A stretch of DNA of 64,000 nucleotides from the NCBI RefSeq assembly GCF_041886205.1, contig NZ_CP169029.1; one strand, given 5' to 3'. Each line of letters opens with the position of its first letter. Position 1 is the first letter of the stretch. The notes under the pieces were generated by a model that did not search any database, was not told the origin of the DNA, and saw only the letters and a list, made by a program, of their open reading frames with translations. Of the stretch, positions 13,845 to 40,000 are shown piece after piece. The position numbers and the translations under genes are program-made. The DNA comes from Escherichia coli (GTDB lineage Bacteria; Pseudomonadota; Gammaproteobacteria; Enterobacterales; Enterobacteriaceae).

Positions 13845-13920
13845 GGCCCTTTAGCTCAGTGGTTAGAGCAGGCGACTCATAATCGCTTGGTCGCTGGTTC
13901 AAGTCCAGCAGGGGCCACCA
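13845..13920 (+). tRNA. ileY: tRNA-Ile2 (anticodon CAT, lysidine-modified), ileY-type
   Basis: 76-nt cloverleaf ggccctttagctcagtggttagagcaggcgactCATaatcgc...ggggccacca with 7-bp acceptor stem and CCA end. Confidence 0.93.
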
Positions 13921-13928
13921 AATAAAAC

Positions 13929-14831: not shown

Positions 14832-14963
14832 AAAGAAATAGTTACAAAAGGTACCCAGTAATCTTCAGGAAGGTACACGAGAAATATACCGTTCAGTTTG
14901 ATTAACTCCGTTCAGTTTCAGCTTTCACCACCAGGAGTTATTCAATTGAAAAATAAACCAACC

Positions 14964-15167
14964 ATGTCTGATAAGGTTGTCGCCCTTCATCAGCCCCAAC
15001 GTCTGATTCGCATTGATACAATGCTTCAGCTCCTCGATTGCAGTCGCACCACCCTCTACCGCTGGGTTAAAGCTGGCATTTTCCCACAGCCGATAATGCA
15101 TGAGGGCCGAACCGTAGGATGGCCAGCCAATACGTATCAATGCTGGCTTGAGCAAAATAACAAGTAA
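14964..15167 (+). CDS. AlpA-family phage transcriptional regulator (Prophage CP4-57 regulatory protein-like HTH)
   Basis: LIRIDTMLQLLDCSRTTLYRWVKAGIFPQPI matches the AlpA/MerR-like HTH pattern; start trimmed from ORF 14898 to MSDKVVAL. Confidence 0.65.
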   Translation: MSDKVVALHQPQRLIRIDTMLQLLDCSRTTLYRWVKAGIFPQPIMHEGRTVGWPANTYQCWLEQNNK

Positions 15168-21223: not shown

Positions 21224-24200
21224 TTAAGCCCCTTTCAACATATCAAACACCACGCGGGCAAAGCCCTTCGCCAGTTCAGGATTAGAGAGGTATTGCACCA
21301 TCATCTCCTGCTGGGCGTCGTTGCTGTCCATCACGGCATCATCAATGGCTTTCGGGAAATCGCCCAGCATCGCCTGCTCACGCGTATTGTTCGCAATCTG
21401 GGTCATCACCGCCTGGTTTTCTGACAGCTTGTCGCGCACCGCGAAGGCATAATTGATCATGTCTTTATCGGTCAGATTATCGGTGACGAACAGCTCGTTC
21501 AGGCGCGCCAGGATATTCGACAGAAACTCTTCTTTCTTGTCTTTCGGCTTCGCCGTACCGACATCATTCCCCGGTGTGATTTTGTATTCTGCCGCATCTT
21601 CCTGCAGCTTCAGATGCTGTTCGTGGAGTTTCGACAGGCGATAATGGCTCATCTCCACGTTGCTTAAATCAATCTCATCTTCTTCGATACGCTGTTCATG
21701 CAGTAACGGGCGCAGGTGGCGGGCAAATAGGCTCAGTTTTTCCAGGTTCTTGTCGTCGTAATCGACGATTTGCGACATAAACTCGTAAAAGCGGACAAAG
21801 CTGCCGAGGTCTTTCTTGAAGATATCCAGCTTACTTTTTTCTTTCTCGCACTCTTTGAAGCTGTTTTCCGCATTGGTGATCAGCACAACATCGCCGGTCT
21901 TCTTAGTACGTTCGAAGATCGCTTTGGCCTTTACATACTCGTCAATCGCCGAGGTGTAACGCTGTTTCCAGCGCTGCACCGCTGGTTTGCAGATATTACT
22001 AATGGCCGCGTTGGATTTGTTTTTGCTGAAGAACGCTTCGCAGAACTGCTCCACTTCGTTCCACAGGAAAATACCGCTGGTACGCAGCTTTTCAAAGAGC
22101 TCAAAGACCTGTTGCGGGTCGCTGACATCCGTCAGTTCTGCTGTCTGGTAGTACGGCTGGAAAGCCCCCAAAATCTCGTCGGGCTCGTTGTAGAAATCGA
22201 GCACAAAGGTGCCTGACTGCGCCTTCCCCGGATAGGTACGGTTCAGGCGTGACAGCGTCTGTACACACTCCACGCCGCCAAGCTTTTTATCCACATACAT
22301 GGCACACAGCTTGGGTTGGTCAAAACCGGTCTGGAATTTGTTGGCCACCAGCATCACCTGGTAGTCGTCGGTATCAAACGCTTTGCGCATATCCCGGCCT
22401 TTCAGGCCTGGGTTCATATTGATTTCGGTGAACTTCTGGTTAAGCAATGCAAGGCTATTGTGGTCATCTTCATGGAACTCAACTTCACCGGAGAACGCCA
22501 CCATTGCGCTGATCTTGTCGTATTTTTGCTCGGCGATGTATTTATCGAATGCCAGCTTATAGCGCACCGCTGCTTTACGCGAACTGGTCACCACCATCGC
22601 TTTCGCCTGACCAGCCAGTAAGTGCATCACATGCTTGCGGAAGTGCTCAACAATCACCTTCACTTTCTGCGACACGTTATGATCGTGCAGCGATACCCAC
22701 TGGTTGAGTTTGATCTTGGCTTTCTTGCTGTCTACTTCCCGGTCAGGATCGTCCAGCTTTTGCAGCAGCTTGTACGCCACCTTGTAGTTGGTGTAGTTCT
22801 TCAGCACATCAAGTATGAAGCCTTCTTCGATGGCCTGACGCATTGAGTAAACGTGAAACGCTTCCGGTTTGTTCGTTTTCGACGCCGGTTCCTGCGGATT
22901 AGGACGACGGCCAAACAGCTCCAGCGTTTTGGCTTTCGGCGTGGCGGTAAAGGCGTAATAGTTGAGATTGTTGCTGCCTTTACGTGCGGCGACGGTGGCA
23001 TCCAGAATATCTTCTGAAGACATCTCCACATCGTCATCCGCTTCTTCGGTCATAAGCACTTCTTTCAGCTGACGCGCCGTAGAACCACTCTGCGAGGAGT
23101 GCGCTTCATCGGCAATCACCGCGTATTTGCGCTGCTTGAGGCTGACGCTGTTTTCAATCGCCTTCAGGACAAACGGGAACGTCTGGATAGTGACGATAAT
23201 GATCGGCTGCGAGTTTTCCAGCGCGCTGGCCAGCTTCTCCGATTTAGAACCGTCGCCTTCTTTGTTATTGATCCGCCCGACCACGCCATCCTGATGCTCA
23301 AACTGATAGATGGTGTCCTGCAGCTGATCGTCAAGCACGGTGCGGTCCGTCACCACAATCACCGAATGGAACTGCTTCTCGCCATTTTCATCATACAGGC
23401 GGGAAAGCTGATGGGCCGTCCAGGCGATAGAGTTAGATTTGCCCGACCCGGCACTGTGCTGAATCAGGTATTTATTGCCGGTGCCTTCCACTGTGGCGGC
23501 GGTGATCAGTTTATTCACCACATCCCACTGGTGATAGCGTGGGAAAATCAGGCTCTCACTTTTGTACTTCAGGCCAATGGCATCTTCTTTTTCTACGATT
23601 TGCAGATGCACGAAGCTCGCGAGAATTTTCAGCAGATTGTCCGGCAGTAGCACCTCATTCCACAGGTAGCTGGTGGCGTAGTCGTTGGCATCTTCCGGGA
23701 TATCGTTCCCCGCACCGCCGTCATGGGTGCCTTTGTTAAACGGCAGGAAGAAGGTTTTATCGCCCTCGAGTTTGGTCGCCATAAACACTTCGTACTGGCT
23801 GACGGCAAAGTGCACCAGCGCGCCGCGTTTAAAGGTCAGCAGCGGCTCGGGTTTATTAGTGCCTGGGTCCTTTGGCAAACGCGTTTTCTTATATTGCGTA
23901 ATGGCGTTTTGCACCGTCTGCTTAAATTCAGACTTCAGTTCCAGGGTCGCTATCGGCAGGCCATTAACGAACAATACCAGGTCGATACGCCATTTCTTCG
24001 CTTTTATACCGGTATCTTCAAATGCGGCGTTCGATGCATGCGGGCTGTAAACCAGCTCCGGCACGATGCGGCAGATATTCTGTTTATAACGAGCCAGTGT
24101 TTCCGGATTGAGGTTATGTTCCGGCTTAAACTGGCACAGAGAAAAACGCGCGTTATGGCTTTTGATACCATGTCGCAGCACGCCTAAAGTGCCATAGGTG

Positions 24201-24472
24201 CGCGAAAGCATATCAGTAGCGTTGATGTCCGCTTTTTTCAGCTGCGCCACCAGCGCATCGAGGAAATGACGTTCGGTATCGGTAGGGTAAATTTTGGCAA
24301 ACTTCTCCCACTCCTGCGGCTGTGTGGTCTGCACAAAGGTCAGCACATCCTGGGAATACAGCGCACGTTCGCGATCATAGCCGTCAGTTTTGCCACAAAT
24401 CCAGCCTTTTGCTTTCATCTGAGCAATCATTTCGTTCTGGAAGATAAGCTCTTTGGTGCTGTCCATGCTCAT
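21224..24472 (-). CDS. hsdR: Type I restriction enzyme R subunit (HsdR)
   Basis: 1082 aa; N-terminal PD-(D/E)xK (IDLVLFVNGLPIATLELKSE), helicase motif I HSAGSGKSNS, DEAH box VIADEAHSSQ. Confidence 0.88.
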   Translation of the reverse strand: MSMDSTKELIFQNEMIAQMKAKGWICGKTDGYDRERALYSQDVLTFVQTTQPQEWEKFAKIYPTDTERHFLDALVAQLKKADINATDMLSRTYGTLGVLRHGIKSHNARFSLCQFKPEHNLNPETLARYKQNICRIVPELVYSPHASNAAFEDTGIKAKKWRIDLVLFVNGLPIATLELKSEFKQTVQNAITQYKKTRLPKDPGTNKPEPLLTFKRGALVHFAVSQYEVFMATKLEGDKTFFLPFNKGTHDGGAGNDIPEDANDYATSYLWNEVLLPDNLLKILASFVHLQIVEKEDAIGLKYKSESLIFPRYHQWDVVNKLITAATVEGTGNKYLIQHSAGSGKSNSIAWTAHQLSRLYDENGEKQFHSVIVVTDRTVLDDQLQDTIYQFEHQDGVVGRINNKEGDGSKSEKLASALENSQPIIIVTIQTFPFVLKAIENSVSLKQRKYAVIADEAHSSQSGSTARQLKEVLMTEEADDDVEMSSEDILDATVAARKGSNNLNYYAFTATPKAKTLELFGRRPNPQEPASKTNKPEAFHVYSMRQAIEEGFILDVLKNYTNYKVAYKLLQKLDDPDREVDSKKAKIKLNQWVSLHDHNVSQKVKVIVEHFRKHVMHLLAGQAKAMVVTSSRKAAVRYKLAFDKYIAEQKYDKISAMVAFSGEVEFHEDDHNSLALLNQKFTEINMNPGLKGRDMRKAFDTDDYQVMLVANKFQTGFDQPKLCAMYVDKKLGGVECVQTLSRLNRTYPGKAQSGTFVLDFYNEPDEILGAFQPYYQTAELTDVSDPQQVFELFEKLRTSGIFLWNEVEQFCEAFFSKNKSNAAISNICKPAVQRWKQRYTSAIDEYVKAKAIFERTKKTGDVVLITNAENSFKECEKEKSKLDIFKKDLGSFVRFYEFMSQIVDYDDKNLEKLSLFARHLRPLLHEQRIEEDEIDLSNVEMSHYRLSKLHEQHLKLQEDAAEYKITPGNDVGTAKPKDKKEEFLSNILARLNELFVTDNLTDKDMINYAFAVRDKLSENQAVMTQIANNTREQAMLGDFPKAIDDAVMDSNDAQQEMMVQYLSNPELAKGFARVVFDMLKGA

Positions 24473-25791
24473 GCGGTGGCCTCCTGTGGCTCCTCAGCGT
24501 CCTGCGTGTCAGGTGCTACCCAATCACGGACGTCGATTTTTCCGGTGACGGCAGCGGAGATCAGGGCGGTACGGCGTTCCTGGAGAATTTGAATAGTCTG
24601 CTCGACCATTTCTTGAGTTATTTGTATTTTGTCTATCTTTTCCAGTACTTTTTTTGCCAGATAAACCTGATCATCAAAAGGAATATCTCTCACGTAAAAA
24701 TTACTAATTTGCTCTGGACTAATATGCGGCACACTAACACCAGTCAAGTCTATTTCAGCATATTCTCTGAATTCATTGCTACTAAGACATAATTTAATAA
24801 ATGGTTGATATGATTTTATATTTGACCTTATCCTTGCAACTCGCTGCAATAAGAGGCAAGGTAAATCCTGCTCTTTAATTTCTGAAACCCTTGCTCCAGA
24901 ACTAATCCATGGTCTATCCATACCAAAAACAATATCGCCAGCCGCTAATAAATAATCACTGAGCCTATCGAGTGTTCTAACATCCCAATATACAACGTCA
25001 TCCCATTTTATGCTGTCAACACCGACATTAACCCCTCGTAAAAGAGGAATACTATTATCAGGTGAAAATTTAAATTTTGTACTTGAAAATGGATAGCCAG
25101 TTTGAATACTAACTAAGTTTTTTAGCTTAGTTTTCCTCTCATTACTACGTATACTGGCGACACTTGAGATCACGGCCTGACGCTTTTCTTTAAGTAGTTC
25201 AATTAGTTGCTGTTGCTTCTCGATCAGGTTATCGATTTTTGCAGTTTCGTGATCGAGGAAACTGTATATTTTTTCCTGCTCAGTCTTGTCTGGAAGCAGC
25301 AGCTCAATATTTCTAAATTCATCAGGATCCAGATCCCATTGATTGACTCGTATCCCCTTGGAGCGGCTCAGATATTGAGTAACGTAAATCGGGTTGCGAA
25401 GTAAATAATGCACATACCTTGGATGTGCCAGTTCAAAAAGGACATTGTTGGGTTTATAGACAAAATATGCCGGACTAACTATCCCTTCATACTCTGAAAT
25501 TGCGATTGAACCTTGCCAGGCTTTCATCTTATTCATAACCAAATCATTTGGCTCAACCAATTGATAGGGGGACAAATCCTCTGAAGGCTTATTATTGTTA
25601 TCATCTCTGCTTGATTTTGGTATAACACCATAGTCCCGATATACGGAAAGCAATTCTTTCTCTGTATATCCGGTCCGCTTGATCCTGGAAAACAATCTGG
25701 ATATGGATACGGTTTTCCAGTGATTCGGAATCTCCCCCAACCACTCAACCCCAGAATCCTTATACTCCGGATACATCTTATACTTCGCCAT
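24469..25791 (-). CDS. hsdS: Type I restriction-modification specificity subunit (HsdS)
   Basis: 440 aa with two target-recognition-domain-like halves separated by a coiled-coil-like spacer; overlaps hsdM stop and hsdR start. Confidence 0.8.
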   Translation of the reverse strand: MAKYKMYPEYKDSGVEWLGEIPNHWKTVSISRLFSRIKRTGYTEKELLSVYRDYGVIPKSSRDDNNNKPSEDLSPYQLVEPNDLVMNKMKAWQGSIAISEYEGIVSPAYFVYKPNNVLFELAHPRYVHYLLRNPIYVTQYLSRSKGIRVNQWDLDPDEFRNIELLLPDKTEQEKIYSFLDHETAKIDNLIEKQQQLIELLKEKRQAVISSVASIRSNERKTKLKNLVSIQTGYPFSSTKFKFSPDNSIPLLRGVNVGVDSIKWDDVVYWDVRTLDRLSDYLLAAGDIVFGMDRPWISSGARVSEIKEQDLPCLLLQRVARIRSNIKSYQPFIKLCLSSNEFREYAEIDLTGVSVPHISPEQISNFYVRDIPFDDQVYLAKKVLEKIDKIQITQEMVEQTIQILQERRTALISAAVTGKIDVRDWVAPDTQDAEEPQEATA

Positions 25792-28175
25792 CAGGAATGT
25801 ACCTCCCGCAGCAGCTTCATAATCTCGGTACTGACTGCATCCAGATCGGCATCAATCTCTTCCAGTGGGCGCGGCGGCTGATAGACGTAGAAATGGCGGT
25901 TAAACGGAATCTCATAACCGACAATTCCCACCTCACCATCTTTCGCATCACGCTTATCGGCGTTGATCCACGCATCATTTACATGCGGCAGCACTTCTGC
26001 TTTGAAGTAGTTTTCGATCAGGTCGCTGGTCGACATTGCCGGGTTCAGCGGCACGTTTTCGTTATCGCGCAGCTCGCCGTCCTGTTCGAACTCAACAACC
26101 TTGCCTTTGTACTCAAACGCACCGTACAGCGGCTGAGCGGCTTCTTTCAGCACCTTCTTCACCACCGGCTCGGCATCCGGGTTTTTCGTGGTAATGGCAT
26201 CGATAAACTGCTTGTTCTCTTTCGCATCCAGCTTCACGCCAGCCGTTTTGATGGCCCCTTTCAGGGTCAGTTGGAACTGATTGAAGTCATTGCTCACCCG
26301 CGTTTTGCCACCCGCCTGCGCACCCAATACCACCTGAATCTGCTGTGCTTTTTCCATGAACTCGCGCTGTGCCAGCCACAATTTGCTGTCGAGCAGGTCT
26401 TTAATCTGCTTCTCTTTCAGCTCTGCAAATTCGGCTTTGATGATGGCGCGCGCTTCGGCTTCCAGTTCGGAGAAATCACCATAGCTGTCCTCCCTCCACT
26501 GGGATGCGAACTCTTCATACAGGCGTTCCATTGGCGCGTTAAACGGCTTCGGCGCAAAGCGCAGAGTCGCAATCGCTTCATCAGTCACCTGTGCAGATAA
26601 CCGCAGCGGGCGCTCAATGGTCAGGCGGCGATAGCCAAAGTCGGTGCTGTTAAAGATTTTGCTGGCGAAGGTTTTCGGAGCTTCGGTTTTGGCCATGGCA
26701 GGCTGACGGCCACGGTTGGATTTTTGCTCGGCGGCTTTTTCCAGACCCAGTTCTTCCAGGGCTGTGACATCCACCACCTGAAAATCACCGAAGGTCTGCG
26801 TGATCAGTTTGATATCGTCTTCGCCCATCAGGTTGCGCTTGGAACCCAGCGATTTACGCATTTTGCCGCACAGGTTAGTGCCATCAATCAGCTGTACTTT
26901 TCCTTTACGCTCAGGCGCTTTCTTGTTGGAGAGGATCCAGACGTAGGTGGCAATACCGGTGTTGTAGAACATATCTGTTGGCAGCGCGACGATGCCTTCC
27001 AGCAAATCGGCTTCCAGAATGTAGCGACGGATTTCGCTCTCACCGCTGCCCGCACCACCAGTAAACAGTGGAGAGCCGTTAAGGATAATCCCGATACGTC
27101 CGCCGTTGCTCACGGTGCCATCCACATTGTGGTTGTCGCGCATTTTGCTGATCAGGTGCATCAGGAACAGCAGCGAGCCGTCGGAAACACGCGGCAGGCC
27201 CGGGCCAAAGCGACCGTTAAAGCCCTTTTGCGTATGTTCGTCGTTAATCTCGCCCTCAATCTTCTTCCAGTCCACGCCAAACGGTGGGTTAGACAGCATG
27301 TAGTCGAATTGATCCAGCGGTAACTGGTCGTTAGAGAGGGTGTTACCCAGCTTAATGCGGCTGACGTCCTGACCTTTGATCAGCATGTCGGCTTTACAGA
27401 TAGCGTAGGATTCCGGATTCAGCTCCTGACCAAAAGCGCGCATCACCGCGTTAGGGTTCAGCTCGTGCACATATTCCATGCCCGAAGAGAGGAAACCACC
27501 CGTCCCGGCCGTCGGGTCATAAATGGTGCGGATGATACCAGGCTGCGTCAGGGCTTCATCATCTTCCATAAACACCAGTGAAGTGGTCAGACGCACGATA
27601 TCGCGTGGGGTGAAGTGCTCACCGGCGGTCTCGTTAGATCTTTCCGCGAAACGACGGATAAGTTCTTCAAACACCAGGCCCATCTCATAGTTGGAAATCG
27701 CTTTCGGGCTGAGATCGGTGGTGGCGAATTTCTTCACTACTTTGAACAGCAAGTTGGCGTCTTCCAGCAGGCCGACGAACTCACTGAATTTAAAATGCTC
27801 GAAGATTTCACGCGCATCGGGCGAGAACGACTGGACGTAATTCTCCAGGTTGGCTTTGATGTCGTTCTGCCCCATCTTGCCAAGATCCATCTTCGAGGTG
27901 TTGAAGAAGGAAAGCTCGCTGGCGCGCAGCAGAAACTTCTCTTTGGCATCTTCCGGCAGCGTGCTGGTTTTTAATTCATCATATTTCGCCACCACCGCAT
28001 CTTTGGTCTCCGCCAACACACACTCAAGACGGCGCAGCAGCGTAAAGGGCAGGATCACGCGCCCGTACTGAGACTGTTTGAAATCACCGCGCAGTAGATC
28101 GGCCACCGACCATATAAACGCAGCCGTTTGAGAAAAGTTAGTGTTAGTCATAAGCGACACCCAAAAAAATGGCAT
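25791..28175 (-). CDS. hsdM: Type I restriction-modification methyltransferase subunit (HsdM), long form; alternative start at 28151
   Basis: N-terminal HsdM_N-like region ([37 protein letters not shown]), NPPF catalytic motif, about 250-aa C-terminal extension. Confidence 0.82.
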
Positions 28176-28358
28176 AAAAAAGTGGCAAGATTATACCCCA
28201 TCAGGCATAAGATGCTTTGACTTATAACGCATCAGTTTGAAACACAATGGTGATGGGGGTCACAGGGGCTGACATGTACTTTTAAGATTAAAAAGCATTA
28301 ACATCTACTTTTGAAGAAAACAGAAAAAAACAATCACAAACCTTTAAAAACAAAAACT

Positions 28359-31300
28359 ATGCCAATTATTAATAAAAAGTATCAAGAGCTTCAGTTAACA
28401 GATGAGTACATTACCGATCCACTGCTCATGGCCCTAGCCTGGAAGAAAAGCCATCACTACATACGTACCACAAATTGGTATGCTGACAACTTTGAACTAG
28501 ACCTGTCGGCTTTGGACCTAATGCAGCACTGTAAAGATTGGGTCAAGAGAATGCAGGACAAAAAAGAATTTAAATTTTCAGAGCTACAACTTGTTCCTGT
28601 ACCAAAAGCCTGTAAATGGGAGTTTAAGACTGTCGAAAATAAGGTTCTATGGCAACCTTGTGATGAAAAAGAACTTACCCTACGCCCCCTTGCCCATATA
28701 CCCATAGCTGAACAAACCATCATGACATTAGTCATGATGTGCCTAGCCAATACAATAGAAACCAAGCAAGGAAACCCAGACACCAGCTATGACATCGTCC
28801 ACCAGAAAGGTATCGTCAATTACGGAAATAGACTTTATTGTCAGTATATTGACGATAAAGCAGAGCACAGCTTCGGTGCAACAGTGACATATAGTAAATA
28901 CTTCACTGATTATCGGAAATTTTTAAATAGGCCTTATCATTTTGCGTCAAAAGCGCAAGGTGAAATTTCGCCGGACGAAGCCGTTTACATCATAGAACTA
29001 GATCTTGCGAAGTTTTTCGATTTAGTAAACAGGAAGACTCTAATTCAAAAGATAAAAAACCATATCAGTGAGTCAATAAACAATAAAGAAAACCCACTCG
29101 CCAATCATTTATTTAAATGTTTTGCAAACTGGGACTGGACTGCATCTAGCATAAAAAATTATGACATATGCAAGTCAGACGAAGTAACAGAAATACCAAA
29201 AGGCATCCCTCAAGGATTGGTTGCAGCAGGGTTTCTATCAAATATTTACTTACTTGAATTAGATCAATTCTTGCATAATAAAATTAACACAGACATAACT
29301 GATGACATTAAATTTGTTGATTACTGTCGATATGTCGATGACATGCGATTTGTGGTTAAGGTTAAAAAATCAAAAAATAATAATACCGCATTCATAAATG
29401 ATGTAATAACCAATCTTCTTAAAAATGAGATAGATAATCTTGGACTGATAATTAATCCTAAAAAAACAAAAGTAGAAATTTTTAGAGGCAAATCCGCAGG
29501 CATCTCGCGTAGCTTGGAAAACATCCAGACCAGATTAAGCGGCCCAATATCAATGGATAGCGCCAACGAACAACTTGGGCATCTTGAGTCATTATTAAGT
29601 CTGACAAAAACCGATTTTGAACCACCGAAAAATGGTAAATCAAATAGATTAGCTGAGATTGAAAAAGACCGTTTCGATGTCAGGGAGGACACTCTTAAGC
29701 GCTTTTCTGCCAATAAAATCAGTAAGATACTAAAAGAGTTAAGACATTTCATCTCGCAGGATATAGATACTGATGGGGAGGTTATTGCCGGGGAATGGGA
29801 TTATCTGCAAGAACGTTTGGCACGGCGTTTTATTGTCTGTTGGAGCCATGACCCGTCACTGGCACTGCTACTCAAGAAAGGGCTGGAACTTTTCCCTGAT
29901 CCTAAGCTATTAGACCCTATACTTGAACAGCTTTGCTCACTCATTGAAAGCGATAATGAAAAACAAAGTGCAGTAGCTACTTATTGCCTTGCTGAAATAT
30001 TTCGACATTCAGCAATGACTATTCATAAAAAAGACACCTATGCATTCCCTGCACAAGCCAATGTGGATGGGTACTTTGAAAAAATACAACATTGCGCCGC
30101 GACATTCATTAATAAGCGCAGCGCCTCTGACAACGAAACTTGGAACCTGTTAATTAATCAGGCTAGTTTTCTGTTGCTTGTGCGTTTAGATAATACATTA
30201 GAAAAAAATGGCACTGATGCCAGGCATGATCTTATCTTAAAACTGGCATCAGGCTTTAGAACAATTACACTTCCCACTAAAATGGATAGCAAGACTATAG
30301 CCTCATGTATTTTGTTGGCTAGTCAATTAGTTAAAGATAACAAACCATTTATTCGCTCCTGCGCTTCTTTGTGCGAAAGAATTTATGACAAAGAACACGT
30401 CATAAAATTGAAGAAAATAGTTAGCATAATATCACATCAAAACTTATCATTGTTTAAATCCTTAGTTTATCATTCACGACCTTTACAACAGAAGTGGCTA
30501 AACTCAGACTCCGTGAAAATAATAATTAATGAATGCCATATAGATATACAACCTTTGGCGACTTCTTTAGGCATGATAAAAAGTAGTCACTCATTACTTA
30601 GAATCATATCAAGACCTGATAACCCATTTGCCAATGAGATAATGGCATTAAAACTGATGCAAGCCCTTTTATTGGACAGGATTGTTTGCCTGGATAATAA
30701 AAAAGATTATCAAATAAGTGTAGCAAACACCAAAGTGACGTTTCATAACTACTCCAACCCTCCAACATCGAATGTCTTCGATGCAGGAATGGATATGGAT
30801 GCAAAATTATTCAAATCATCGGGATGGGTCGATTCTATTTTCACGGATGATGCAGACACTCAAATATTGTATAGAGTTGCCATGTGCATCCGTTCAGTAC
30901 TACTCGGCAAACAAGACTGGACAGATTTTGGTCAAGCAATTTCCCCCAAACAGGGTTATCGGGGTATTAAAACTAGTAGAGACAAACGTCAATTGGGGAT
31001 GATGACAACACCTGAGTCCATTGCCGGTGAGAACTCTCAGGTTTCTGGTTGGCTTACCACACTCTTATCCAAGTTGCTTGCCTGGCCGGGAATTTCAGTG
31101 GGTGATAATGGATATCAATGGCCAGCAATTTTTACAGTAGATGCTGTCAGAAAACTAGTTGATGCTCGGCTGAGTAAACTTAAGCAGGATTACTGCAAAC
31201 TATCAGGAACTCCGGGACTTACAGAAAAAATACAGTTCAACTGGTCTGACTCGAAAAAAGCCCTAACAGTTGCTATGGTCCAGTCAAAACTGCCTGCAAC

Positions 31301-32135
31301 GAAAGATTTTGTCAGCCATGGACTTCTTTTAAACTCCGCAAAGTATAGAGTGATTCATCGCAGACATGTTGCTGAAGTGGCTGATTTAGTTGTAAAACAC
31401 ACGCTTGCACAAAAAACAACTCAACGAACTCATGGTGAAAAAATAGAGAACATTGATTTAATAGTATGGCCTGAGCTCGCTGTACATAGTGACGATTTGG
31501 ATGTACTCATCGCCTTATCTAGAAAAACGAATGCAATCATATACTCGGGCCTGACATTTATTGAGCAACCTGGAATCAAAGGACCAAATAATTGTGCCGT
31601 TTGGATTGTCCCACCTAAAAGCAATAGCAGCCAGAAAGAAATGATAAGACTTCAAGGCAAGCATAATATGATGGAAGATGAGAAAGGCCGGGTTGAACCC
31701 TGGAGACCATACCAATTGATGCTTGAACTTGTTCACCCCCAATTTACTGATAAAAAAGGATTTGTTCTCACAGGCTCCATTTGTTATGACGCAACCGACA
31801 TCGCGCTAAGTGCAGATCTCAGGGATAAATCAAATGCTTATCTTGTAGCAGCATTAAACAGGGATGTTAATACATTCGATTCCATGGTTGAAGCACTGCA
31901 TTATCATATGTACCAGCATGTTGTGCTCGTTAACTCAGGGGAATTCGGAGGATCTTACGCTAAAGCACCTTACAAGGAGCCGTTTAATCGTTTGATTGCT
32001 CATGTTCATGGCAATGATCAGGTAGCTATAAGTACGTTTGAAATGAACATGTTTGATTTCCGTCGTGATAATATAGGAAAAAGTATGCAATCCGGGTTAG
32101 ATAAAAAAACTGCTCCTGCAGGAATCATAATGTAA
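28359..32135 (+). CDS. Reverse transcriptase-nitrilase fusion, defence-associated RT type 1 (UG1)-like
   Basis: RT motifs GIPQGLVAAGFLSNIYLLELD and YCRYVDDMRFVV (YVDD); C-terminal carbon-nitrogen hydrolase motifs IVWPELAV and LTGSICYDATD; start trimmed from the TTG-initiated ORF 28311 to ATG at 28359. Confidence 0.75.
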   Translation: MPIINKKYQELQLTDEYITDPLLMALAWKKSHHYIRTTNWYADNFELDLSALDLMQHCKDWVKRMQDKKEFKFSELQLVPVPKACKWEFKTVENKVLWQPCDEKELTLRPLAHIPIAEQTIMTLVMMCLANTIETKQGNPDTSYDIVHQKGIVNYGNRLYCQYIDDKAEHSFGATVTYSKYFTDYRKFLNRPYHFASKAQGEISPDEAVYIIELDLAKFFDLVNRKTLIQKIKNHISESINNKENPLANHLFKCFANWDWTASSIKNYDICKSDEVTEIPKGIPQGLVAAGFLSNIYLLELDQFLHNKINTDITDDIKFVDYCRYVDDMRFVVKVKKSKNNNTAFINDVITNLLKNEIDNLGLIINPKKTKVEIFRGKSAGISRSLENIQTRLSGPISMDSANEQLGHLESLLSLTKTDFEPPKNGKSNRLAEIEKDRFDVREDTLKRFSANKISKILKELRHFISQDIDTDGEVIAGEWDYLQERLARRFIVCWSHDPSLALLLKKGLELFPDPKLLDPILEQLCSLIESDNEKQSAVATYCLAEIFRHSAMTIHKKDTYAFPAQANVDGYFEKIQHCAATFINKRSASDNETWNLLINQASFLLLVRLDNTLEKNGTDARHDLILKLASGFRTITLPTKMDSKTIASCILLASQLVKDNKPFIRSCASLCERIYDKEHVIKLKKIVSIISHQNLSLFKSLVYHSRPLQQKWLNSDSVKIIINECHIDIQPLATSLGMIKSSHSLLRIISRPDNPFANEIMALKLMQALLLDRIVCLDNKKDYQISVANTKVTFHNYSNPPTSNVFDAGMDMDAKLFKSSGWVDSIFTDDADTQILYRVAMCIRSVLLGKQDWTDFGQAISPKQGYRGIKTSRDKRQLGMMTTPESIAGENSQVSGWLTTLLSKLLAWPGISVGDNGYQWPAIFTVDAVRKLVDARLSKLKQDYCKLSGTPGLTEKIQFNWSDSKKALTVAMVQSKLPATKDFVSHGLLLNSAKYRVIHRRHVAEVADLVVKHTLAQKTTQRTHGEKIENIDLIVWPELAVHSDDLDVLIALSRKTNAIIYSGLTFIEQPGIKGPNNCAVWIVPPKSNSSQKEMIRLQGKHNMMEDEKGRVEPWRPYQLMLELVHPQFTDKKGFVLTGSICYDATDIALSADLRDKSNAYLVAALNRDVNTFDSMVEALHYHMYQHVVLVNSGEFGGSYAKAPYKEPFNRLIAHVHGNDQVAISTFEMNMFDFRRDNIGKSMQSGLDKKTAPAGIIM

Positions 32136-32155
32136 TAAATATTAGATATTTTTAT

Positions 32156-32194
32156 ATTAGAGGTGAGGAGATGGCGTCACCTCTAATATTTTCG
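32156..32194 (+). terminator. Intrinsic terminator after the RT-nitrilase gene
   Basis: Perfect 10-bp inverted repeat ttagaggtga/tcacctctaa followed by tatttt. Confidence 0.6.
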
Positions 32195-32428
32195 CTGATT
32201 GTATTTAGCATCAAATAATAAAGGTACAATTAATTTAAGTGACTATCATGAAAAAATTAGTTCCGCCATATCAAGTAACCCCGGCACAAATCTATCGTTC
32301 CGTTGCCAGTTCTACAGCCATTGAAACCGGAAAACCCGTGCAAGAAATTGAGCGACAGCTCAAACGTAACCGAACGCTGGCGAAGAACGTCGGCCTCGCC
32401 AGCAAATCCAGAGATCCGATTTAAGCCT

Positions 32429-33736
32429 CTATCTCTGCCCAAACAGGTTAACGACATTGTTTTCCTGCTGTTGCTGGTGGTTATTCACCCGAGACTCCCA
32501 GATCTCGAGAGCCTTACGCTTTTCAACCAGGTAATCGTAACGATCGTAGTGTTTAGAACTCACATCCTGTAGAGCATGGTTCTGAATGCGGTCACGCAGG
32601 TCTTTAGCAATACCCGCTTCGCCCATCAGGGTCTTACAGGTACGACGAATATCACGCGCAATAAAAGATGGGCTCAACGCAAAGTGTTGCCGGTAATAAA
32701 TGATGGCTTGTGCAAAGCTGTCTGTGCGTAGATGCTGTTCCGGTTTAATACGCTGCGGGAAGATGTAAGGACTCTGACTATGATTCTCAGCTTTCAACTT
32801 TTCGAGTATCTCAATGGCTGACTCAGTCAAAGGCACCAGATGATCCCTTTTATTTTTCGACACATCCGCCACTATCAATAACGTTTTTTCTTCCCAGTTA
32901 ACGGCATCCCAACGGCTGGAAACCAGTTCATGAGGCCGCTGGCCACCCGTATAGACACACAAGTTAAGCAATTGGCTGATTAACGGGCCGACCTTTGGTG
33001 CTTTAGGGAAATCCCCCATCAGTTGCTGCAACTCATCCAGCTTCAGCCAGTTTGTCCCTGCCTTCTCCGCTGCAGATTGTTTGGGTATGACACTCACTGG
33101 GTTCATTTGAAGCCCAAACATCACGTTCTGCTGGTGGTTTGCCGGATCGTTGTCAGCCTTCAACCCATAATTGAATGCTGCCATCAGATAAGAGCGAACA
33201 CGATTTGCTTCAACTGATGCGCCACGTTTAATAATGGTGGCCAGAATTTGTTTGATATGAGCGGGGATAACGTCACGCGCTTTCGTCGCTTTAGGTATAA
33301 ATGGATAGGTTTCTTTTTCCAGCCGGTACAAAACCTGTTGCCAGGTGCGTTTACCGTCTTCACGCATTTTGGTGGTGTAACCCAAAATGAGTTGCTCAAT
33401 GCTGCCTTTGAGCTGGTCTTCACGTTGTTGTTGTTCGGCAGAGAAAAGCTGCTCTGCGATTTCAGCTTTGGGGTCTTTCCCTTCTTTAAGAAGACCCGCA
33501 TGTTCTTTACATTGCTGTCTTGCCTGCGCGAGTGACAACTCTGGGAAACGGCCAAGCAGAATGAATTGCCGTTTTCCTTGCCAAAAATAACGATAGTAAA
33601 ATACTCGCTGACCCGATGGCTCAACTTTCACCCCTAATCGCCCTGCCCCACGCTCACCACTTTTATCCCATTCATAATAAGCAGTAGTCTTCGGCTTCAA
33701 GCCACTAATCATTGAGACAGTTAAATTATCAGCCAT
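32429..33736 (-). CDS. P4-type tyrosine integrase of the ileY island
   Basis: N-terminal arm-binding-like domain (MADNLTVSMISGLKPKTTAYYEWDKSG...RVFYYRYFWQGKRQ); start trimmed from ORF 33838 to ATG at 33736; adjacent to attR. Confidence 0.82.
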   Translation of the reverse strand: MADNLTVSMISGLKPKTTAYYEWDKSGERGAGRLGVKVEPSGQRVFYYRYFWQGKRQFILLGRFPELSLAQARQQCKEHAGLLKEGKDPKAEIAEQLFSAEQQQREDQLKGSIEQLILGYTTKMREDGKRTWQQVLYRLEKETYPFIPKATKARDVIPAHIKQILATIIKRGASVEANRVRSYLMAAFNYGLKADNDPANHQQNVMFGLQMNPVSVIPKQSAAEKAGTNWLKLDELQQLMGDFPKAPKVGPLISQLLNLCVYTGGQRPHELVSSRWDAVNWEEKTLLIVADVSKNKRDHLVPLTESAIEILEKLKAENHSQSPYIFPQRIKPEQHLRTDSFAQAIIYYRQHFALSPSFIARDIRRTCKTLMGEAGIAKDLRDRIQNHALQDVSSKHYDRYDYLVEKRKALEIWESRVNNHQQQQENNVVNLFGQR

Positions 33737-33758
33737 AGTATTTTTCAGTCCTTTGTTC

Positions 33759-33804
33759 GTTACGTCACCCAGTCTGATTCTGGGTGACGTAGTGGGTGAC
33801 GTAA
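33759..33804. repeat. Three GGGTGACGTA motifs (one inverted, two direct) upstream of the island integrase
   Basis: gttacgtcaccc ... tgggtgacgtagtgggtgacgtaa; same motif as 13977-14001. Confidence 0.45.
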
Positions 33805-33929
33805 GGATGATACTGAAGGTAAAAACGCAGAACAACATGAAACAACAACCAGCAAATAACCTACTGTTATTTATTAAATTTAATCTAACGTGAAAAAAGA
33901 TGCAAAATCATGAAACATGGATTTCATAT

Positions 33930-33976
33930 GACTCATAATCGCTTGGTCGCTGGTTCAAGTCCAGCAGGGGCCACCA
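33930..33976 (+). repeat. 47-bp direct repeat of the ileY 3' end (attR of the island)
   Basis: Identical to tRNA positions 13874-13920. Confidence 0.85.
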
Positions 33977-34731
33977 AATCATCATTCATGTATCAGGAAG
34001 AGTTAAGGGTACAAGGGGTACTCGATGGCGGTCTATATTTCACGATTAACGCCATTTCAAGGAAGAAGTGCGGTGGGTGGTTTCGAATGAGGGCTGGTGT
34101 TTTGGTACGTGGCATGCCACTGCAATGTATTTATCCATCAGTACTCATTCAAAAGTACCTGGAAAAAATGCCCGCTATGCCAAGCGGGCAAATTGCTTAC
34201 ATGTGGAATTAAGTAATTAACGATAAAGCCAGAGTATTATCATTTATCATGCCTCTTCATTTAATCAGGTTAATTACTCAAATCACTGAACTATTCTCTG
34301 TTCGCTTACTGATGATAAGTGAAGTGTCACAACCACGATTTGTATGTGGACCAATGCCGTAGAGTAAGGATGAAATGTCTCTGCCACGCATTAAACATCT
34401 ACTACTGACCAGAACACCCGCCGCAGGCAGATGAGTCTTGTGAGTATTACAGAAGCATGGCTATGCTCATTAACCAACTCTAATAGATATAAATTCCTAA
34501 CACTCGAAAAACGAATTTCACTAATAAGTCATAACGGGTGATTTTTATCATACAGCGAAATAACCTTTTGTTTATTAAATTTAACATTCTTGTGCTTATT
34601 TAATTAAAAATTCCATGCGTAGCATGTGAAACAGTTAATGTCAGCAAATGTCTCAAATGAGCGATTTTTTATAGTGACAAACAGTAATAACGTTAAAAAT
34701 AGCCATGAAGACATTAACTGAGGAATAGACA

Positions 34732-36081
34732 ATGTTAGTTAGTAAAAGCAACGAATTTAACACTAGCGCAGTTTTGGCTAGCAGGAATTATAATGAAAAC
34801 AATTCTTCCAACCCCATGGGGCTACTAGCTTATAGTATTTTAAATTTAATTTGTAAGGAAGCTGCCTCAGGGACGTACAACGGTGCTATTGAAATTTTAC
34901 AAAAAATGATGTCTGAATGTAAATATCAAGAAGGCAACGCCTTTGTCATTATGGGATCTGGAGAACAATTAAAACGTATTAAATATGATGTTGATGAAAA
35001 TAACTTAAAAGTATTCAACGTACACTTTAATAATAATGAAGAGTTAGTTACTGATGGTGAGCCTGACGTAGTATGTTTAAGCAAGCAGGAGTGGGAAAAT
35101 CTTCTCATTAAATTAAAACCGGAGATTAAAGAAAATGTGTTTTCTGAAAATAACAAATCATCGAGAGAAAATAATGTTGATCAGTATGTTCAATCCGCTA
35201 AAAGAAATGAACAGGCCCTTTTCGATAATATAATAAAAAGTGATTTTCATGTTGCTTCACTTCAGCCAGGTAGTACGCGTAGTGTTATTTCAGAAACGCC
35301 ACGAAATGTCTGTATGGAACCACGTAATTCCTATGAAACCAAAATAGATGAGATTTCATCTTTGTCAGAGTCAAAGGAACACTCCATAGATATTCAAGAA
35401 AAAACAGATGCGTTTGTGAATGAGTTCAAGGGGATATTATTTGATAAAAATGGAACGTCTTCAGAGTTTCTACTTAATTTTTATGAATGTTGCTATGAGT
35501 TTTTACCAAGAGCGCAGCCTCAGGATAAAATCGATAGCTATAATTCAGCACTGCAAGCTTTTTCCATCTTTTGTTCATCTACGTTGACACATAATAATAT
35601 AGGCTTTGATTTCAAATTATTTCCAGAAGTCAAGCTGTCTAGAGAACATCTTGAAACGGTATTCAAATACAAAAATGGCGATGATGTCCGGGAGATAGCC
35701 AAAATTAACATTACTCTCCAAAAAGAAGAGGGTGGTTTATATAATTTACGTGGATTAGATTTTAAGGGATGCTTCTTTTCTGGACAGAACTTCAGTAACT
35801 ATGATATTCAATATGTGAACTGGGGAACGTCATTGTTTGATCTTGATACTCCATGTATTTTTAATGCGCCTGCTTACAACAAGAGTAATGAAAAATCATT
35901 AGAACGCGTCAGCGAAAACGGTTTAAGTGGAGTCTTGTCTGATCGTAATAAAAAAATAAAACTCATCACGGGCGTGGCACCATTCGATGATATTTTATTT
36001 ATGGATGACGACTTTGATGATAGTTCCTCTGAGGATGATCCCGTTGAGAATAGTCCTGTTGTGACTAGTCCCCTTGTATAA
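34732..36081 (+). CDS. Hypothetical AT-rich protein (449 aa), possibly YpjC-like; acidic Ser/Asp-rich C-terminus
   Basis: Long clean ORF, low GC, Asn/Lys-rich; position equivalent to ypjC next to the ancestral ileY junction. Confidence 0.45.
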   Translation: MLVSKSNEFNTSAVLASRNYNENNSSNPMGLLAYSILNLICKEAASGTYNGAIEILQKMMSECKYQEGNAFVIMGSGEQLKRIKYDVDENNLKVFNVHFNNNEELVTDGEPDVVCLSKQEWENLLIKLKPEIKENVFSENNKSSRENNVDQYVQSAKRNEQALFDNIIKSDFHVASLQPGSTRSVISETPRNVCMEPRNSYETKIDEISSLSESKEHSIDIQEKTDAFVNEFKGILFDKNGTSSEFLLNFYECCYEFLPRAQPQDKIDSYNSALQAFSIFCSSTLTHNNIGFDFKLFPEVKLSREHLETVFKYKNGDDVREIAKINITLQKEEGGLYNLRGLDFKGCFFSGQNFSNYDIQYVNWGTSLFDLDTPCIFNAPAYNKSNEKSLERVSENGLSGVLSDRNKKIKLITGVAPFDDILFMDDDFDDSSSEDDPVENSPVVTSPLV

Positions 36082-36485
36082 AGTTCTAAAAGCAGTTTTC
36101 AATGATAAATAAATGGCTATTTTTACGAAGAGATAATAACGTAGATTGAAACAATATGTATTATTGATTGAGTAAACGGGATTATTATTCACACTACATC
36201 CATTTTAGTGTCACTACCAAAGAAAAAGGGGCTACGTTTTCATGTAACCCCTTGATTTATTTGGTGGGCTGGCAGTGACTGAATTGGTGCTGTAATTGGT
36301 TGAAATATTTCATCTAATGTCTGGTTTAACTTTCCTTAGCTGCCTGAAAGTTTTTTGATCTCACCCAGCAATAACAGCGTTACGGTGCACCACGACTGAC
36401 TGAAGAACTGCGTGCTCAGGGTTACCACTTCAACGTAAAACCGTGGCAGGAGGTCCGGACTGAAAAAACTGCTCAGGACATTATC

Positions 36486-36612
36486 GGCAGGGTACGCACT
36501 GGTAGTCTGTAAACTGAACCGACTGGGGCGCAGTATGTGGCATCTTGTCGTGCTGTTGGAGGAGCTGTGCGAACGTGGTATTAACTTTCGTGCTCTGGCC
36601 CAATCTATATTT
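36486..36612 (+). pseudogene. pinH: Serine recombinase (Pin/Gin invertase family) fragment, pinH-like
   Basis: Translation ...[37 protein letters not shown] matches the resolvase catalytic-domain motif; no intact N- or C-terminus. Confidence 0.6.
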
Positions 36613-37007
36613 GCCCAACAATGGGGGGACGGAAGCTGTAAAAGTAAAACAATCTGCGATCTCAGAGTTATTGTGTGATTTTTATGTGAGCAGAAGATAT
36701 TCATCAGAAACGATTATGTAAATCATTTTATTTTGCCGACTGCCTGATTGTCGAAAGAAAAGAATACGCCCGGGTTTCCTGAATAGATTGACTTTTTTAT
36801 CCAACCACACTTCAGCGCACTGCGTTTAAAAAATGCCTCATTCTTATGCGGAATATCATCATTTCATCATGATGTCTTTGATGAGCGGTGAACACAATAC
36901 ACTTGCGCTGTCTCTTCAGGATGAATCCCCTGGTCTGGTGCCTGTGGGCTGATGTTGCAGCAAAGCTAAGGTCGCTTAAACGCTACTCAGTATTCACTTT
37001 TCAGAGG

Positions 37008-40000
37008 ATGAAATTTATGAACAGGACCAGTCCCTATTATTTTCGCCGCTCAGTACTTTCCTTATTGATATCTGCCCTGATATATGCTCCGCCCGGGATG
37101 GCGGCCTTTACTACTAATGTTATTGGTGTGGTAAATGATGAGACTGTAGATGGCAACCAACGAGTAGATGAACGAGGTACAACAAATAACACTCATATTA
37201 TCAACCATGGCCAGCAGAGTGTTTATGGCGGAGTATCTAATGGAAGTATTATTGAATCGGGTGGATATCAAGATGTTGGAAGGAATAACAATTATATGGG
37301 GCAGTCTAATAATACAACCATTAACGGAGGAAGACAGACAATTCATGACGGGGGCATTTCCACCGGTACGATAATCGACAGTGGCAATCAGGACGTTTAT
37401 ACAGGTGGTATCAGCAATGGAACGACAATTAAGGGTGGTAATTCACACATAAGTGGGGGGACTGCGAATGGAACAATCATTGATGGTGGCAGCCAACGAG
37501 TAACAACGCAGGGGCATGTTGACAGTACAACGATAAATAAGTCTGGCTCTCAGGACATCACGCAAGGAAGTCTGGCGACGAACACAATCATAAATGGTGG
37601 ACGACAGTATGTTGAACAGAGCACAGTAGGAACAACCACCATTAAAAATGGCGGTGAGCAAAGAGTATATGAAAGCCATGCGCTGGACACGACGATTGAA
37701 GGTGGAACTCAGTCTCTGAATAATAAGTCAACGGCAAAAAATACTCAGATCTATTCTGGTGGTACGCAAATTGTTGATAACACCAGCACCTCGGATGTTA
37801 TTGAAGTTTATTCCGGTGGCGTGCTTGATGTTAGTGGTGGTACGGCAACAAATGTTACCCAGCACGATGGTGCAATTTTAAAAACAAACACTAACGGTAC
37901 GACGGTGAACGGTACGAATAGTGAAGGTGCATTCTCCATCCACAATCACGTGGCAGACAATGTGTTGCTGGAAAACGGTGGTCATTTAGACATAAACGCA
38001 TATGGTTCGGCAAACAAGACTATTATCAAAGATAAAGGAACAATGTCAGTTTTAACCAATGCTAAAGCTGATGCGACCCGAATAGATAACGGCGGGGTAA
38101 TGGATGTTGCCGGAAACGCGACCAATACCATAATTAATGGTGGCACACAGAATATTAATAATTATGGCATAGCCACGGGAACCAATATCAACAGCGGAAC
38201 GCAAAATATCAAGAGCGGCGGGAAAGCTGACACGACAATTATATCCTCCGGGAGCCGGCAGGTTGTTGAGAAAGATGGTACGGCAACTGGCAGCAATATT
38301 AGCGCCGGAGGCTCGCTGATTGTCTATACCGGCGGTATTGCACATGGGGTTAACCAGGAGACGGGCAGTGCTTTAGTTGCCAACACGGGTGCAGGGACTG
38401 ATATCGAAGGATACAACAAGCTCTCTCACTTCACTATTACCGGAGGGGAGGCTAATTATGTTGTGCTGGAAAATACCGGCGAACTGACGGTAGTGGCTAA
38501 AACCTCGGCGAAAAATACTACCATTGATACTGGCGGTAAGCTGATTGTCCAGAAGGAGGCTAAAACAGATAGCACCAGACTTAATAATGGCGGCGTTCTG
38601 GAGGTTCAGGACGGTGGTGAGGCTAAGCATGTTGAGCAACAATCCGGCGGCGCATTAATTGCTTCCACGACCTCCGGAACACTTATCGAAGGAACCAACA
38701 GTTATGGTGATGCTTTCTACATCAGGAATTCAGAAGCTAAAAATGTAGTGCTGGAAAACGCTGGCTCATTAACAGTCGTCACTGGTTCCCGGGCAGTTGA
38801 TACGATTATTAATGCCAATGGCAAAATGGATGTTTATGGAAAAGATGTTGGCACTGTACTTAATAGTGCTGGCACCCAAACAATATATGCCAGTGCCACT
38901 TCTGATAAAGCAAATATCAAAGGTGGCAAGCAAACGGTATATGGTTTAGCCACTGAAGCAAATATCGAAAGTGGTGAACAAATTGTTGATGGTGGGTCAA
39001 CAGAGAAAACACACATCAATGGTGGCACGCAAATCGTTCAGAATTATGGTAAGGCAATCAATACCGATATCGTCTCTGGCCTACAACAAATTATGGCAAA
39101 CGGGACAGCGGAAGGTTCCATTATTAATGGGGGTTCACAGGTAGTTAATGAGGGCGGTCTGGCTGAAAACTCGGTGCTTAATGACGGCGGCACACTCGAT
39201 GTGCGGGAGAAAGGCAGCGCAACGGGGATACAGCAGAGTAGCCAGGGCGCTTTGGTTGCAACCACCAGGGCGACGCGGGTCACAGGAACACGCGCGGATG
39301 GCGTCGCGTTCAGCATCGAGCAGGGTGCGGCGAACAATATCCTGCTGGCAAATGGCGGCGTGTTAACCGTGGAGTCAGACACCTCTTCTGACAAAACACA
39401 GGTCAATATGGGCGGACGGGAGATCGTCAAAACAAAAGCCACTGCGACAGGCACGACGCTCACCGGCGGTGAACAAATTGTCGAGGGTGTGGCGAATGAG
39501 ACAACAATTAACGACGGCGGAATACAAACAGTTTCAGCTAACGGAGAGGCAATAAAAACAAAGATCAATGAAGGCGGTACGCTGACAGTCAACGATAATG
39601 GCAAAGCGACAGATATCGTCCAGAACAGCGGTGCCGCTCTCCAGACGAGCACGGCTAACGGTATTGAAATCAGCGGTACTCACCAGTACGGTACTTTTTC
39701 CATTTCCGGCAATTTAGCGACCAATATGTTGCTGGAAAATGGCGGTAATTTATTGGTATTAGCAGGTACCGAAGCTCGCGACTCCACGGTTGGCAAGGGT
39801 GGGGCAATGCAAAACCTGGGTCAGGACTCCGCCACAAAGGTTAACTCTGGCGGGCAATATACCCTTGGGCGGTCAAAAGATGAGTTTCAGGCTCTGGCCC
39901 GGGCAGAAGATCTCCAGGTCGCTGGCGGTACGGCAATCGTCTACGCAGGTACGCTGGCGGATGCATCGGTCAGTGGCGCGACAGGAAGCCTGTCGTTAAT

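Follow-up and report, generated by a model that had tools for sequence, protein, structure and literature searches.

The closest described relatives of the gene considered here are the defence-associated reverse transcriptases of type 1 (DRT1), which make up group UG1 of the class 3 UG/Abi reverse transcriptases (RTs) and are proteins of 1200-1300 amino acids (aa) with a C-terminal carbon-nitrogen (C-N) hydrolase domain (Mestre et al., PMC9226505). The class 3 RTs also carry a linker of unknown function, and a transmembrane partner, Drt1b, is encoded at 33 of 175 UG1 loci, about 18% (PMC9226505). Defence by DRT1 was first shown for a system from Klebsiella pneumoniae (Gao et al. 2020, as cited in PMC9226505), and mutations in the nitrilase abolish defence by the K. 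pneumoniae DRT type 1 (PMC9226505). Here, a stretch of 64,000 nucleotides (nt) from the Escherichia coli contig NZ_CP169029.1 was analysed; it is referred to as the window, and positions are counted from its first letter. The subject is drt1 (Drt1a/UG1), a gene at 28359-32135 on the plus strand, which encodes a protein of 1258 aa with, in order, a reverse transcriptase, an alpha-helical middle region and a nitrilase.

An initial annotation of this locus, made from the letters of the DNA, had described the mechanism of such proteins as not well characterised, a statement that has been overtaken by a cryo-electron microscopy and functional study of 2026 (Neville et al. 2026, PMC13275509). In that work DNA synthesis by DRT1 is template-free, protein-primed and insensitive to RNase A, with a product that is freed only by proteinase K; priming occurs on S402, and the adducts are more than 70% deoxyadenosine and about 17-30 nt long in native preparations (PMC13275509). 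Tetramers and filaments need the adducts, RT-dead DRT1 being monomeric, and the filament structure at 2.6 A shows the nitrilase active site shut by domain-swapped C-termini (PMC13275509). Defence takes the form of abortive infection and is abolished by D324N/D325N, S402A, C1116A, K1219A, A1223F and C-terminal deletions; DNA synthesis is by itself insufficient for it, and T4 escapers map to the dda helicase gene (PMC13275509). Drt1b is dispensable, as DRT1 defends without it, and the authors' term for DRT1 is a 'minimal retron' (PMC13275509).

The drt1 gene and its three regions

The translation of 28359-32135 is free of stops over 1258 codons and ends with a stop codon, which bears out the open reading frame (ORF) of about 1258 aa that had been proposed. 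The protein matched the PADLOC Drt1a profile PDLC03745 over its full length (E=0, 1396 bits; residues 4-1256 against profile positions 4-1176 of 1176) and a second PADLOC Drt1a model at 580 bits. The PADLOC model RT_UG5-nitrilase reached 138 bits, with its best stretch at residues 1030-1237 and so in the nitrilase part only, and the remaining PADLOC RT classes gave at most 80 bits, in the RT core only. Among the NCBIfam models, those for Drt2 (68 bits against a cut-off of 390), group II intron RT (TIGR04416; 61 bits against 300), retron RT (NF038233; 46.5 bits against 235), AbiA and Drt3a all scored far under their curated cut-offs. The sole strong match of phmmer in the PDB was 9YFD, 'Defense-associated reverse transcriptase 1' (E 8e-152), to which BLASTP aligns the N-terminal 558 aa at 31% identity and the C-terminal 495 aa at 35%. 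The UG1/DRT type 1 assignment of the initial annotation is thus upheld by the full-length Drt1a match and by 9YFD, and the RT domain does not side with the group II intron or retron RTs, the grouping that had been named as evidence to the contrary. Judged by these matches, the gene is a divergent new member of the known DRT1/UG1 family.

The ORF is longest when read from TTG 28311, 16 codons 5' of ATG 28359, but the ATG is supported as the start of drt1 because homologues begin there, including the solved DRT1 (MKLLNKKY, compared with MPIINKKY in the window protein). Gene calls on other contigs also place the start at ATG 28359. The G+C content of drt1 is 38.8%, against 46.9% for the window. 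Ratios of nonsynonymous to synonymous substitution rates (dN/dS) of 0.16, 0.14 and 0.09 were obtained against homologues with 97%, 90% and 75% protein identity, respectively, and drt1 is therefore under purifying selection and no chance ORF. An exact look-up found the identical protein on at least 18 contigs of draft and read-archive assemblies, with unchanged neighbours; among 5,426 complete E. coli genomes, not one carries drt1. It is a genuine, horizontally acquired gene under selection.

Conservation was counted over 81 full-length sequences, comprising the window protein and 80 UG1 loci taken at one genome per species. The RT core (Pfam RVT_1, E 5e-14) covers residues 207-373, at 28977-29477 on the plus strand, and the three RT motifs that had been claimed were located as PQG at 284, SNIYL at 294 and YVDD at 325-328; the last of these (nt 29331-29342) sits inside YCRYVDDMRFVV. 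D327 and D328, the equivalents of D324 and D325 in 9YFD, are invariant (81/81). The predicted protein-priming serine is Ser394 (29538-29540, plus strand), which lies in an invariant SGP motif and whose column in the multiple alignment holds Ser in all 81 sequences. S394 is assigned as the priming residue and the equivalent of S402 from the multiple alignment only, because a 9YFD-like protein, that of Pectobacterium aroidearum, places its serine in the invariant column: there, GT forms a two-residue insertion and the first Ser of GTSS lands in the column of S394.

The middle alpha-helical region extends over about residues 440-849 (29676-30905, plus strand) by sequence comparison with 9YFD. When residues 541-760 were searched against the PDB with phmmer, there was no match to 9YFD and only a chance match to CENP-W. 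This part of the window (29976-31050, residues about 541-760) is dissimilar to 9YFD, in which the inter-tetramer contacts use residues 689-715, and filament packing could therefore differ in the clade to which the window protein belongs.

Pfam gave no CN_hydrolase match and no other match on the C-terminal 558 aa, and the nitrilase call was therefore checked through homology to 9YFD and a fold search. The C-terminal nitrilase-fold region was modelled with AlphaFold2 as residues 850-1258 (30906-32132, plus strand) from a 28-sequence alignment, with a predicted local distance difference test (pLDDT) of 84 and a predicted template modelling score (pTM) of 0.85. Foldseek matched this model in the PDB to aliphatic amidases, formamidases, Nit proteins and nitrilases (E 1e-12 to 1e-9, probability 1.0), among them the Rhodococcus nitrilase filament 8UXU. 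These matches of the predicted structure identify the C-terminal domain as one with the nitrilase-superfamily fold. The WPE and ICYD motifs reported in the initial annotation are located at 1037 and 1141, and the catalytic tetrad is predicted to consist of E1039 (31473-31475), K1101 (31659-31661), E1108 (31680-31682) and C1142 (31782-31784, aligning with C1116 of 9YFD), all on the plus strand. Lack of a Glu-Lys-Cys triad had been named as grounds for rejecting the domain; E1039, K1101 and C1142 are each invariant (81/81) and the second Glu, E1108, is present in 80 of the 81 sequences.

The extreme C-terminus carries the 'lid' K1250-T-A-P-A1254-G1255 (32106-32123, plus strand), which corresponds to K1219-T-Q-P-A1223-G of 9YFD; K1250 and P1253 are each conserved in 79/81 and A1254 in 80/81 sequences. 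The tail could be aligned only with a family profile, since pairwise phmmer ended at 9YFD residue 1211, and the C-terminal family profile matched 9YFD residues 830-1228, tail included, at E 1.7e-140.

As every experimentally defined functional residue is conserved, homology makes the published mechanism the best explanation, and drt1 very probably specifies an antiphage system of the DRT1 type (UG1, class 3 UG/Abi) that consists of a single protein and works as 9YFD does. The RT domain would use no RNA template and would prime on its own Ser394, polymerising short, A-rich, semirandom single-stranded DNA (ssDNA) that would be covalently retained on the protein. These adducts would drive the formation of nitrilase-mediated tetramers and their stacking into filaments, in which the tail of the neighbouring protomer (K1250...A1254) would close over E1039, K1101, E1108 and C1142 and so hold the effector dormant. 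Infection by a susceptible phage would lift this block, which in the case of T4 needs the ssDNA helicase Dda together with further factors, and the freed nitrilase would then act on an essential substrate, with abortive infection as the outcome. At this locus, the system would work without the Drt1b membrane partner.

Flanking sequences and linkage to type I restriction-modification

The initial annotation had suggested that a template RNA might be encoded in the regions 28176-28358 and 32136-32428 on either side of drt1. The former is the intergenic region between the divergent hsdM and drt1 genes, presumed to hold their promoters; that the two genes are divergent and share it was correctly described, and it measures 183-207 bp depending on the start of hsdM. 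A search of 27800-32800 with Rfam at permissive thresholds gave nothing credible, the two matches being at chance level, inside the ORF and on the opposite strand, and neither group II intron RNA nor msr/msd was matched in this interval. The upstream intergenic region folds no better than its shuffles (z -0.27). By BLASTN, similarity to the Pantoea coffeiphila locus, where the protein is 75% identical and the neighbourhood is another, covers 28325-32166 only, and nucleotide conservation ends 34 nt 5' and 31 nt 3' of the drt1 ORF. A conserved 5' element of ~190 nt, which MAFFT had aligned with Pantoea, was considered as a candidate and rejected, as BLASTN is significant from 34 nt upstream only.

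On the other side, 19 nt past the stop codon, 32154-32195 (plus strand) can form a hairpin with a 13-bp stem followed by a U-rich tract; its folding energy is -21.2 kcal/mol (z -4.8), it is conserved in the Pantoea homologue, and it reads as an intrinsic terminator. Promoter and terminator consensus scans remained at background level and missed this hairpin. In many members of the clade only 12-14 bp separate drt1 from the end of the gene in front of it, and on its other side drt1b (at -1 to 5 bp) or another gene follows closely.

An RT that copies a non-coding RNA from one of these two regions, like those of the retrons and of DRT2, DRT9 and DRT10, would follow a common way of working among defence RTs; there is non-coding room for such an RNA (183-207 bp upstream and about 290 bp downstream), and a stable hairpin stands immediately past the drt1 stop. 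However, with its U-tract this hairpin is terminator-like, and the Rfam null result, the z score of the upstream region, the short reach of the Pantoea conservation, the flanks of many clade members that are coding up to drt1 and the low score of the Drt2 profile all speak against an RNA template, which we therefore consider highly improbable. Rfam, folding and conservation were all negative and gave no evidence for the RNA that had been proposed. Since synthesis by DRT1 is template-free and protein-primed and the flanks are unremarkable, looking for a template RNA beside drt1 has little prospect of success.

Drt1b is likewise absent from the window, where tblastn with the Shewanella protein gave E values above 3 and the small ORF downstream of drt1 had no PADLOC match. 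In the same clade, the Shewanella baltica locus encodes Drt1b (E 1e-60). Within the species sample, the protein nearest to 9YFD is that of P. aroidearum (L090, 6001-9696; 84% identity across 523 aligned C-terminal positions); 11 bp 3' of its drt1 lies a Drt1b-like gene of 144 aa, though the published protein works without Drt1b.

The upstream neighbours of drt1 are the genes of a type I restriction-modification (R-M) system. Neighbours were scored in the 80 species-level loci and in individually fetched loci with iterative HsdM, HsdS, HsdR and Drt1b profiles built from seeds, and DRT1 clades were defined by clustering the proteins on identity. The clade of the window gene contains 33 sequences with a mean of 53% identity to it, mostly from marine Gammaproteobacteria with a few from Enterobacterales. 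A type I R-M gene was found within 500 bp of drt1 in 20/27 evaluable loci of this clade, compared with 8/42 elsewhere (Fisher p 1e-5), and in 18 of the 27 it lies directly upstream on the same strand as drt1. Single-subunit matches are ambiguous because the HsdR profile also catches other superfamily 2 (SF2) helicases (for example at L028); with the stricter count of at least two R-M subunits, the figures are 13/27 clade loci and 4/42 others (p 5e-4). Most commonly the clade has hsdR-hsdM-hsdS-drt1, in which the drt1 start follows the hsdS stop after 12-14 bp, and a Vibrio subgroup has hsdM-hsdS-hsdR-drt1 with a gap of about 54 bp between hsdR and drt1. R-M-linked loci of the clade include L015, L019, L020, L023-L026, L031, L039-L042, L045, L095 and L100, with drt1 at about 6001 or 4001/5001 in each, together with the window (25791-28358), which is the sole clade locus with hsdM and drt1 in divergent arrangement.

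The HsdM proteins of the clade divide into three families with no more than 23-35% identity between them, and the involvement of three unrelated R-M families suggests that drt1 has become associated with type I R-M repeatedly. The adjacency to hsdM is more meaningful than the initial annotation implied. A targeted rather than exhaustive search of the literature for a report of linkage between type I R-M and DRT found nothing relevant.

In Vibrio cholerae (L019, 9489-13912), an hsdRMS-drt1-drt1b cassette adjoins tniQ and cas genes of the Csy2/Csy3/Csy4 type, which suggests that the cassette is cargo of an element resembling a CRISPR-associated transposon.

The linkage invites the idea that DRT1 of this clade is a fourth component of type I R-M, kept latent through the Hsd complex or sensing its state, and that it fires abortive infection when a phage disables or evades restriction, much as the anticodon nuclease PrrC is held by EcoprrI. 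The frequency of R-M adjacency in the clade, the direct upstream and co-oriented position in two thirds of its loci and the three unrelated R-M families would all fit, as would the retention of the hsdRSM/drt1 module in E. coli and in the 97% and 90% (Hafnia) variants despite their differing hsdS. However, R-M neighbours are missing from 7/27 clade loci, that of Pantoea (75% identity) among them, the window arrangement is divergent and not operonic, and the characterised DRT1 defends when cloned alone, in MG1655, a strain that has EcoKI. Defence genes are known to accumulate at type I hsd loci, and co-transfer or co-transcription would account for the data without physical coupling; the loci are moreover phylogenetically related, so that the Fisher p overstates their independence. 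As the loci are not phylogenetically independent and 7/27 lack R-M, functional coupling is a minority hypothesis, to which we give only a small chance. Just as doubtful is its more specific form, in which clade DRT1 would be co-transcribed with hsdRMS as an abortive back-up whose activation is set by the state of Hsd (for example by phage anti-restriction), with the divergent window locus as a rearranged cassette. The linkage may simply have arisen because layered defences at hsd loci are transferred and transcribed together.

It could also be asked whether the RT belongs to a mobile retroelement, either a group II intron or a retron, or whether the gene is a decaying, non-functional remnant on the island. 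The RT domain does match the group II intron and retron models weakly, and drt1 is an AT-rich foreign gene on a mobile island that has been deleted beside IS1 in one E. coli genome (below). These weak matches lie far under their cut-offs, however, with no intron or msr/msd RNA found, and the ORF is intact, its dN/dS is 0.09-0.16, its catalytic residues are kept and the identical protein recurs on at least 18 contigs. The retroelement or remnant reading, of almost negligible probability, is effectively refuted. The reading of drt1 as a DRT1 that shares the mechanism of 9YFD is preferred to all of these, and several points nevertheless weigh against it. Identity to 9YFD, the one characterised DRT1, is only 31-35%; residues 559-741 have no pairwise similarity to it, though both flanking domains match; the pairwise phmmer alignment is offset, with S402 of 9YFD opposite I397; and the tight R-M linkage of the clade hints at a dependency outside the scope of the reference study. 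Given the low identity and the dissimilar middle region, filament geometry, adduct composition, phage range and trigger could all differ in the clade of the window protein.

The island at ileY

Exact 50-bp direct repeats bound a roughly 20-kb integrative island at the tRNA-Ile gene ileY (13845-13920), whose CAT anticodon is read by ARAGORN as Met. The left copy, attL (13874-13923, plus strand), includes the 3' part of ileY and is identical to the right copy, attR (33930-33979, plus strand). At the left end the island encodes an AlpA-like excisionase (14898-15167), and it also encodes a protein with a YagK/YfjJ domain. An McrC-family gene (17914-19215) and a gene for an McrB-like AAA ATPase of 660 aa (19212-21194; DUF8426, AAA_5 and McrB_lid in Pfam, for the identical protein) lie on the minus strand directly downstream of hsdR, and from their sequences these two genes (17914-21194) are a probable type IV restriction module.

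On the same strand follow hsdR (21224-24472), hsdS (24469-25791) and hsdM (25791-28175 as the longest ORF, divergent from drt1), for which the gene callers and the PADLOC alignment prefer a start 8 codons further in. The window HsdM is long, with 786-794 aa against about 500 aa beside most clade members, and its full-length match to PADLOC MTase_I PDLC03029 indicates that a large extension is added to the N6_Mtase core. A conserved ORF of 58 aa (MKKLVPPYQV...; 32248-32424, plus strand), situated between drt1 and the integrase gene, is gene-called in the 97% and 90% islands; it had no PADLOC or PHROGs match and no transmembrane character. The tyrosine integrase gene (32429-33838, minus strand) is 469 aa as its longest ORF and 435 aa according to the gene callers.

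The surroundings are E. coli backbone: parts of 13000-36500 have matches in 5,423 of the 5,426 complete genomes. On its right side the island is followed (34732-41597) by an intact YpjCB of 449 aa and a YpjA/Ag43-like autotransporter of 1569 aa, and a transfer-messenger RNA (tmRNA) gene is located at 53333-53695 on the minus strand; we take this right-hand neighbourhood to correspond to the K-12 layout from ssrA/CP4-57 to ileY.

NZ_CP135595.1 is the only complete RefSeq E. coli sequence with the same island, being 99.9% identical up to base 11 of drt1. At that point (L007, 18094-19065; window 28369 onward) an IS1 begins, and other sequence takes the place of drt1, the integrase gene and the backbone beyond them; drt1 seems to have been lost in a deletion associated with the IS1. 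The 97% variant and the 90% Hafnia variant both retain the module of hsdRSM, drt1, the 58-aa ORF and the integrase gene, with a different hsdS.

Relation to known systems

The gene can be annotated confidently under the name drt1 (Drt1a/UG1); the island should be called an ileY tRNA-Ile defence island that carries McrBC-like genes, type I R-M and DRT1. The protein would also make a convenient second test case for the generality of the adduct and filament mechanism across UG1, for the substrate of the nitrilase and for the trigger, because it is divergent (31-35%), comes from E. coli, for which phage panels and genetics are easiest, and is naturally without Drt1b. The clade-specific attachment to R-M is the only lead beyond what is known, and could raise the question of layered or coupled restriction and abortive infection.

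The genomic arrangement, in which an abortive-infection effector gene is joined to a type I R-M operon, recalls PrrC-EcoprrI, a likeness in arrangement only, as PrrC, the anticodon nuclease of a type I hsd locus, has no relation to DRT1 in sequence or fold. The class 2 DRTs (DRT2, DRT9 and DRT10) are small RTs with a conserved adjacent non-coding RNA, whereas the window protein has a nitrilase and its flanks are not conserved. Retrons such as Eco2 (RT-toprim) resemble DRT1 in that non-genomic DNA made by the RT acts like an antitoxin and keeps the effector dormant in a filament; unlike them, DRT1 has no msr/msd template, and its DNA is of undefined sequence and serine-linked to the protein. 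The class 1 UG/Abi systems (AbiK, AbiP2, DRT4 and DRT7) share with DRT1 a homo-oligomeric RT and template-independent, protein-primed synthesis of random or semirandom ssDNA, but they have no nitrilase effector, another C-terminal alpha-repeat architecture and another priming residue.

Closer to the window protein are the UG5-large systems (DRT5L/DRT11), in which an RT is likewise joined to a C-terminal nitrilase of the same UG-specific nitrilase radiation, sometimes with a transmembrane protein. Their phenotype is reported to resemble abortive infection and to need both the RT and the nitrilase domains (10.64898/2025.12.16.694600). DRT5 is also template-free and protein-primed, and a priming serine of the S402 type is reported not to be conserved in other class 3 DRTs (PMC13275509). 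The window protein differs from UG5-large in that it matches the UG5 profile at 1030-1237 only, with 138 bits against 1396 bits for Drt1a.

From 9YFD itself the window protein differs in belonging to another UG1 clade at 31-35% identity, with a middle region that is partly unalignable pairwise and a priming loop without the two-residue GT insertion. The nearest sampled relative of 9YFD, that from Pectobacterium, has a Drt1b neighbour, whereas the window gene has none and its clade is mostly attached to R-M. The two proteins are alike in their size of 1200-1300 aa, in the sequence of RT, helical linker and C-N hydrolase with a full-length Drt1a match, in YVDD, the priming Ser, the E-K-E-C tetrad and the C-terminal K..PAG lid, and in forming a single-gene system in a defence island.

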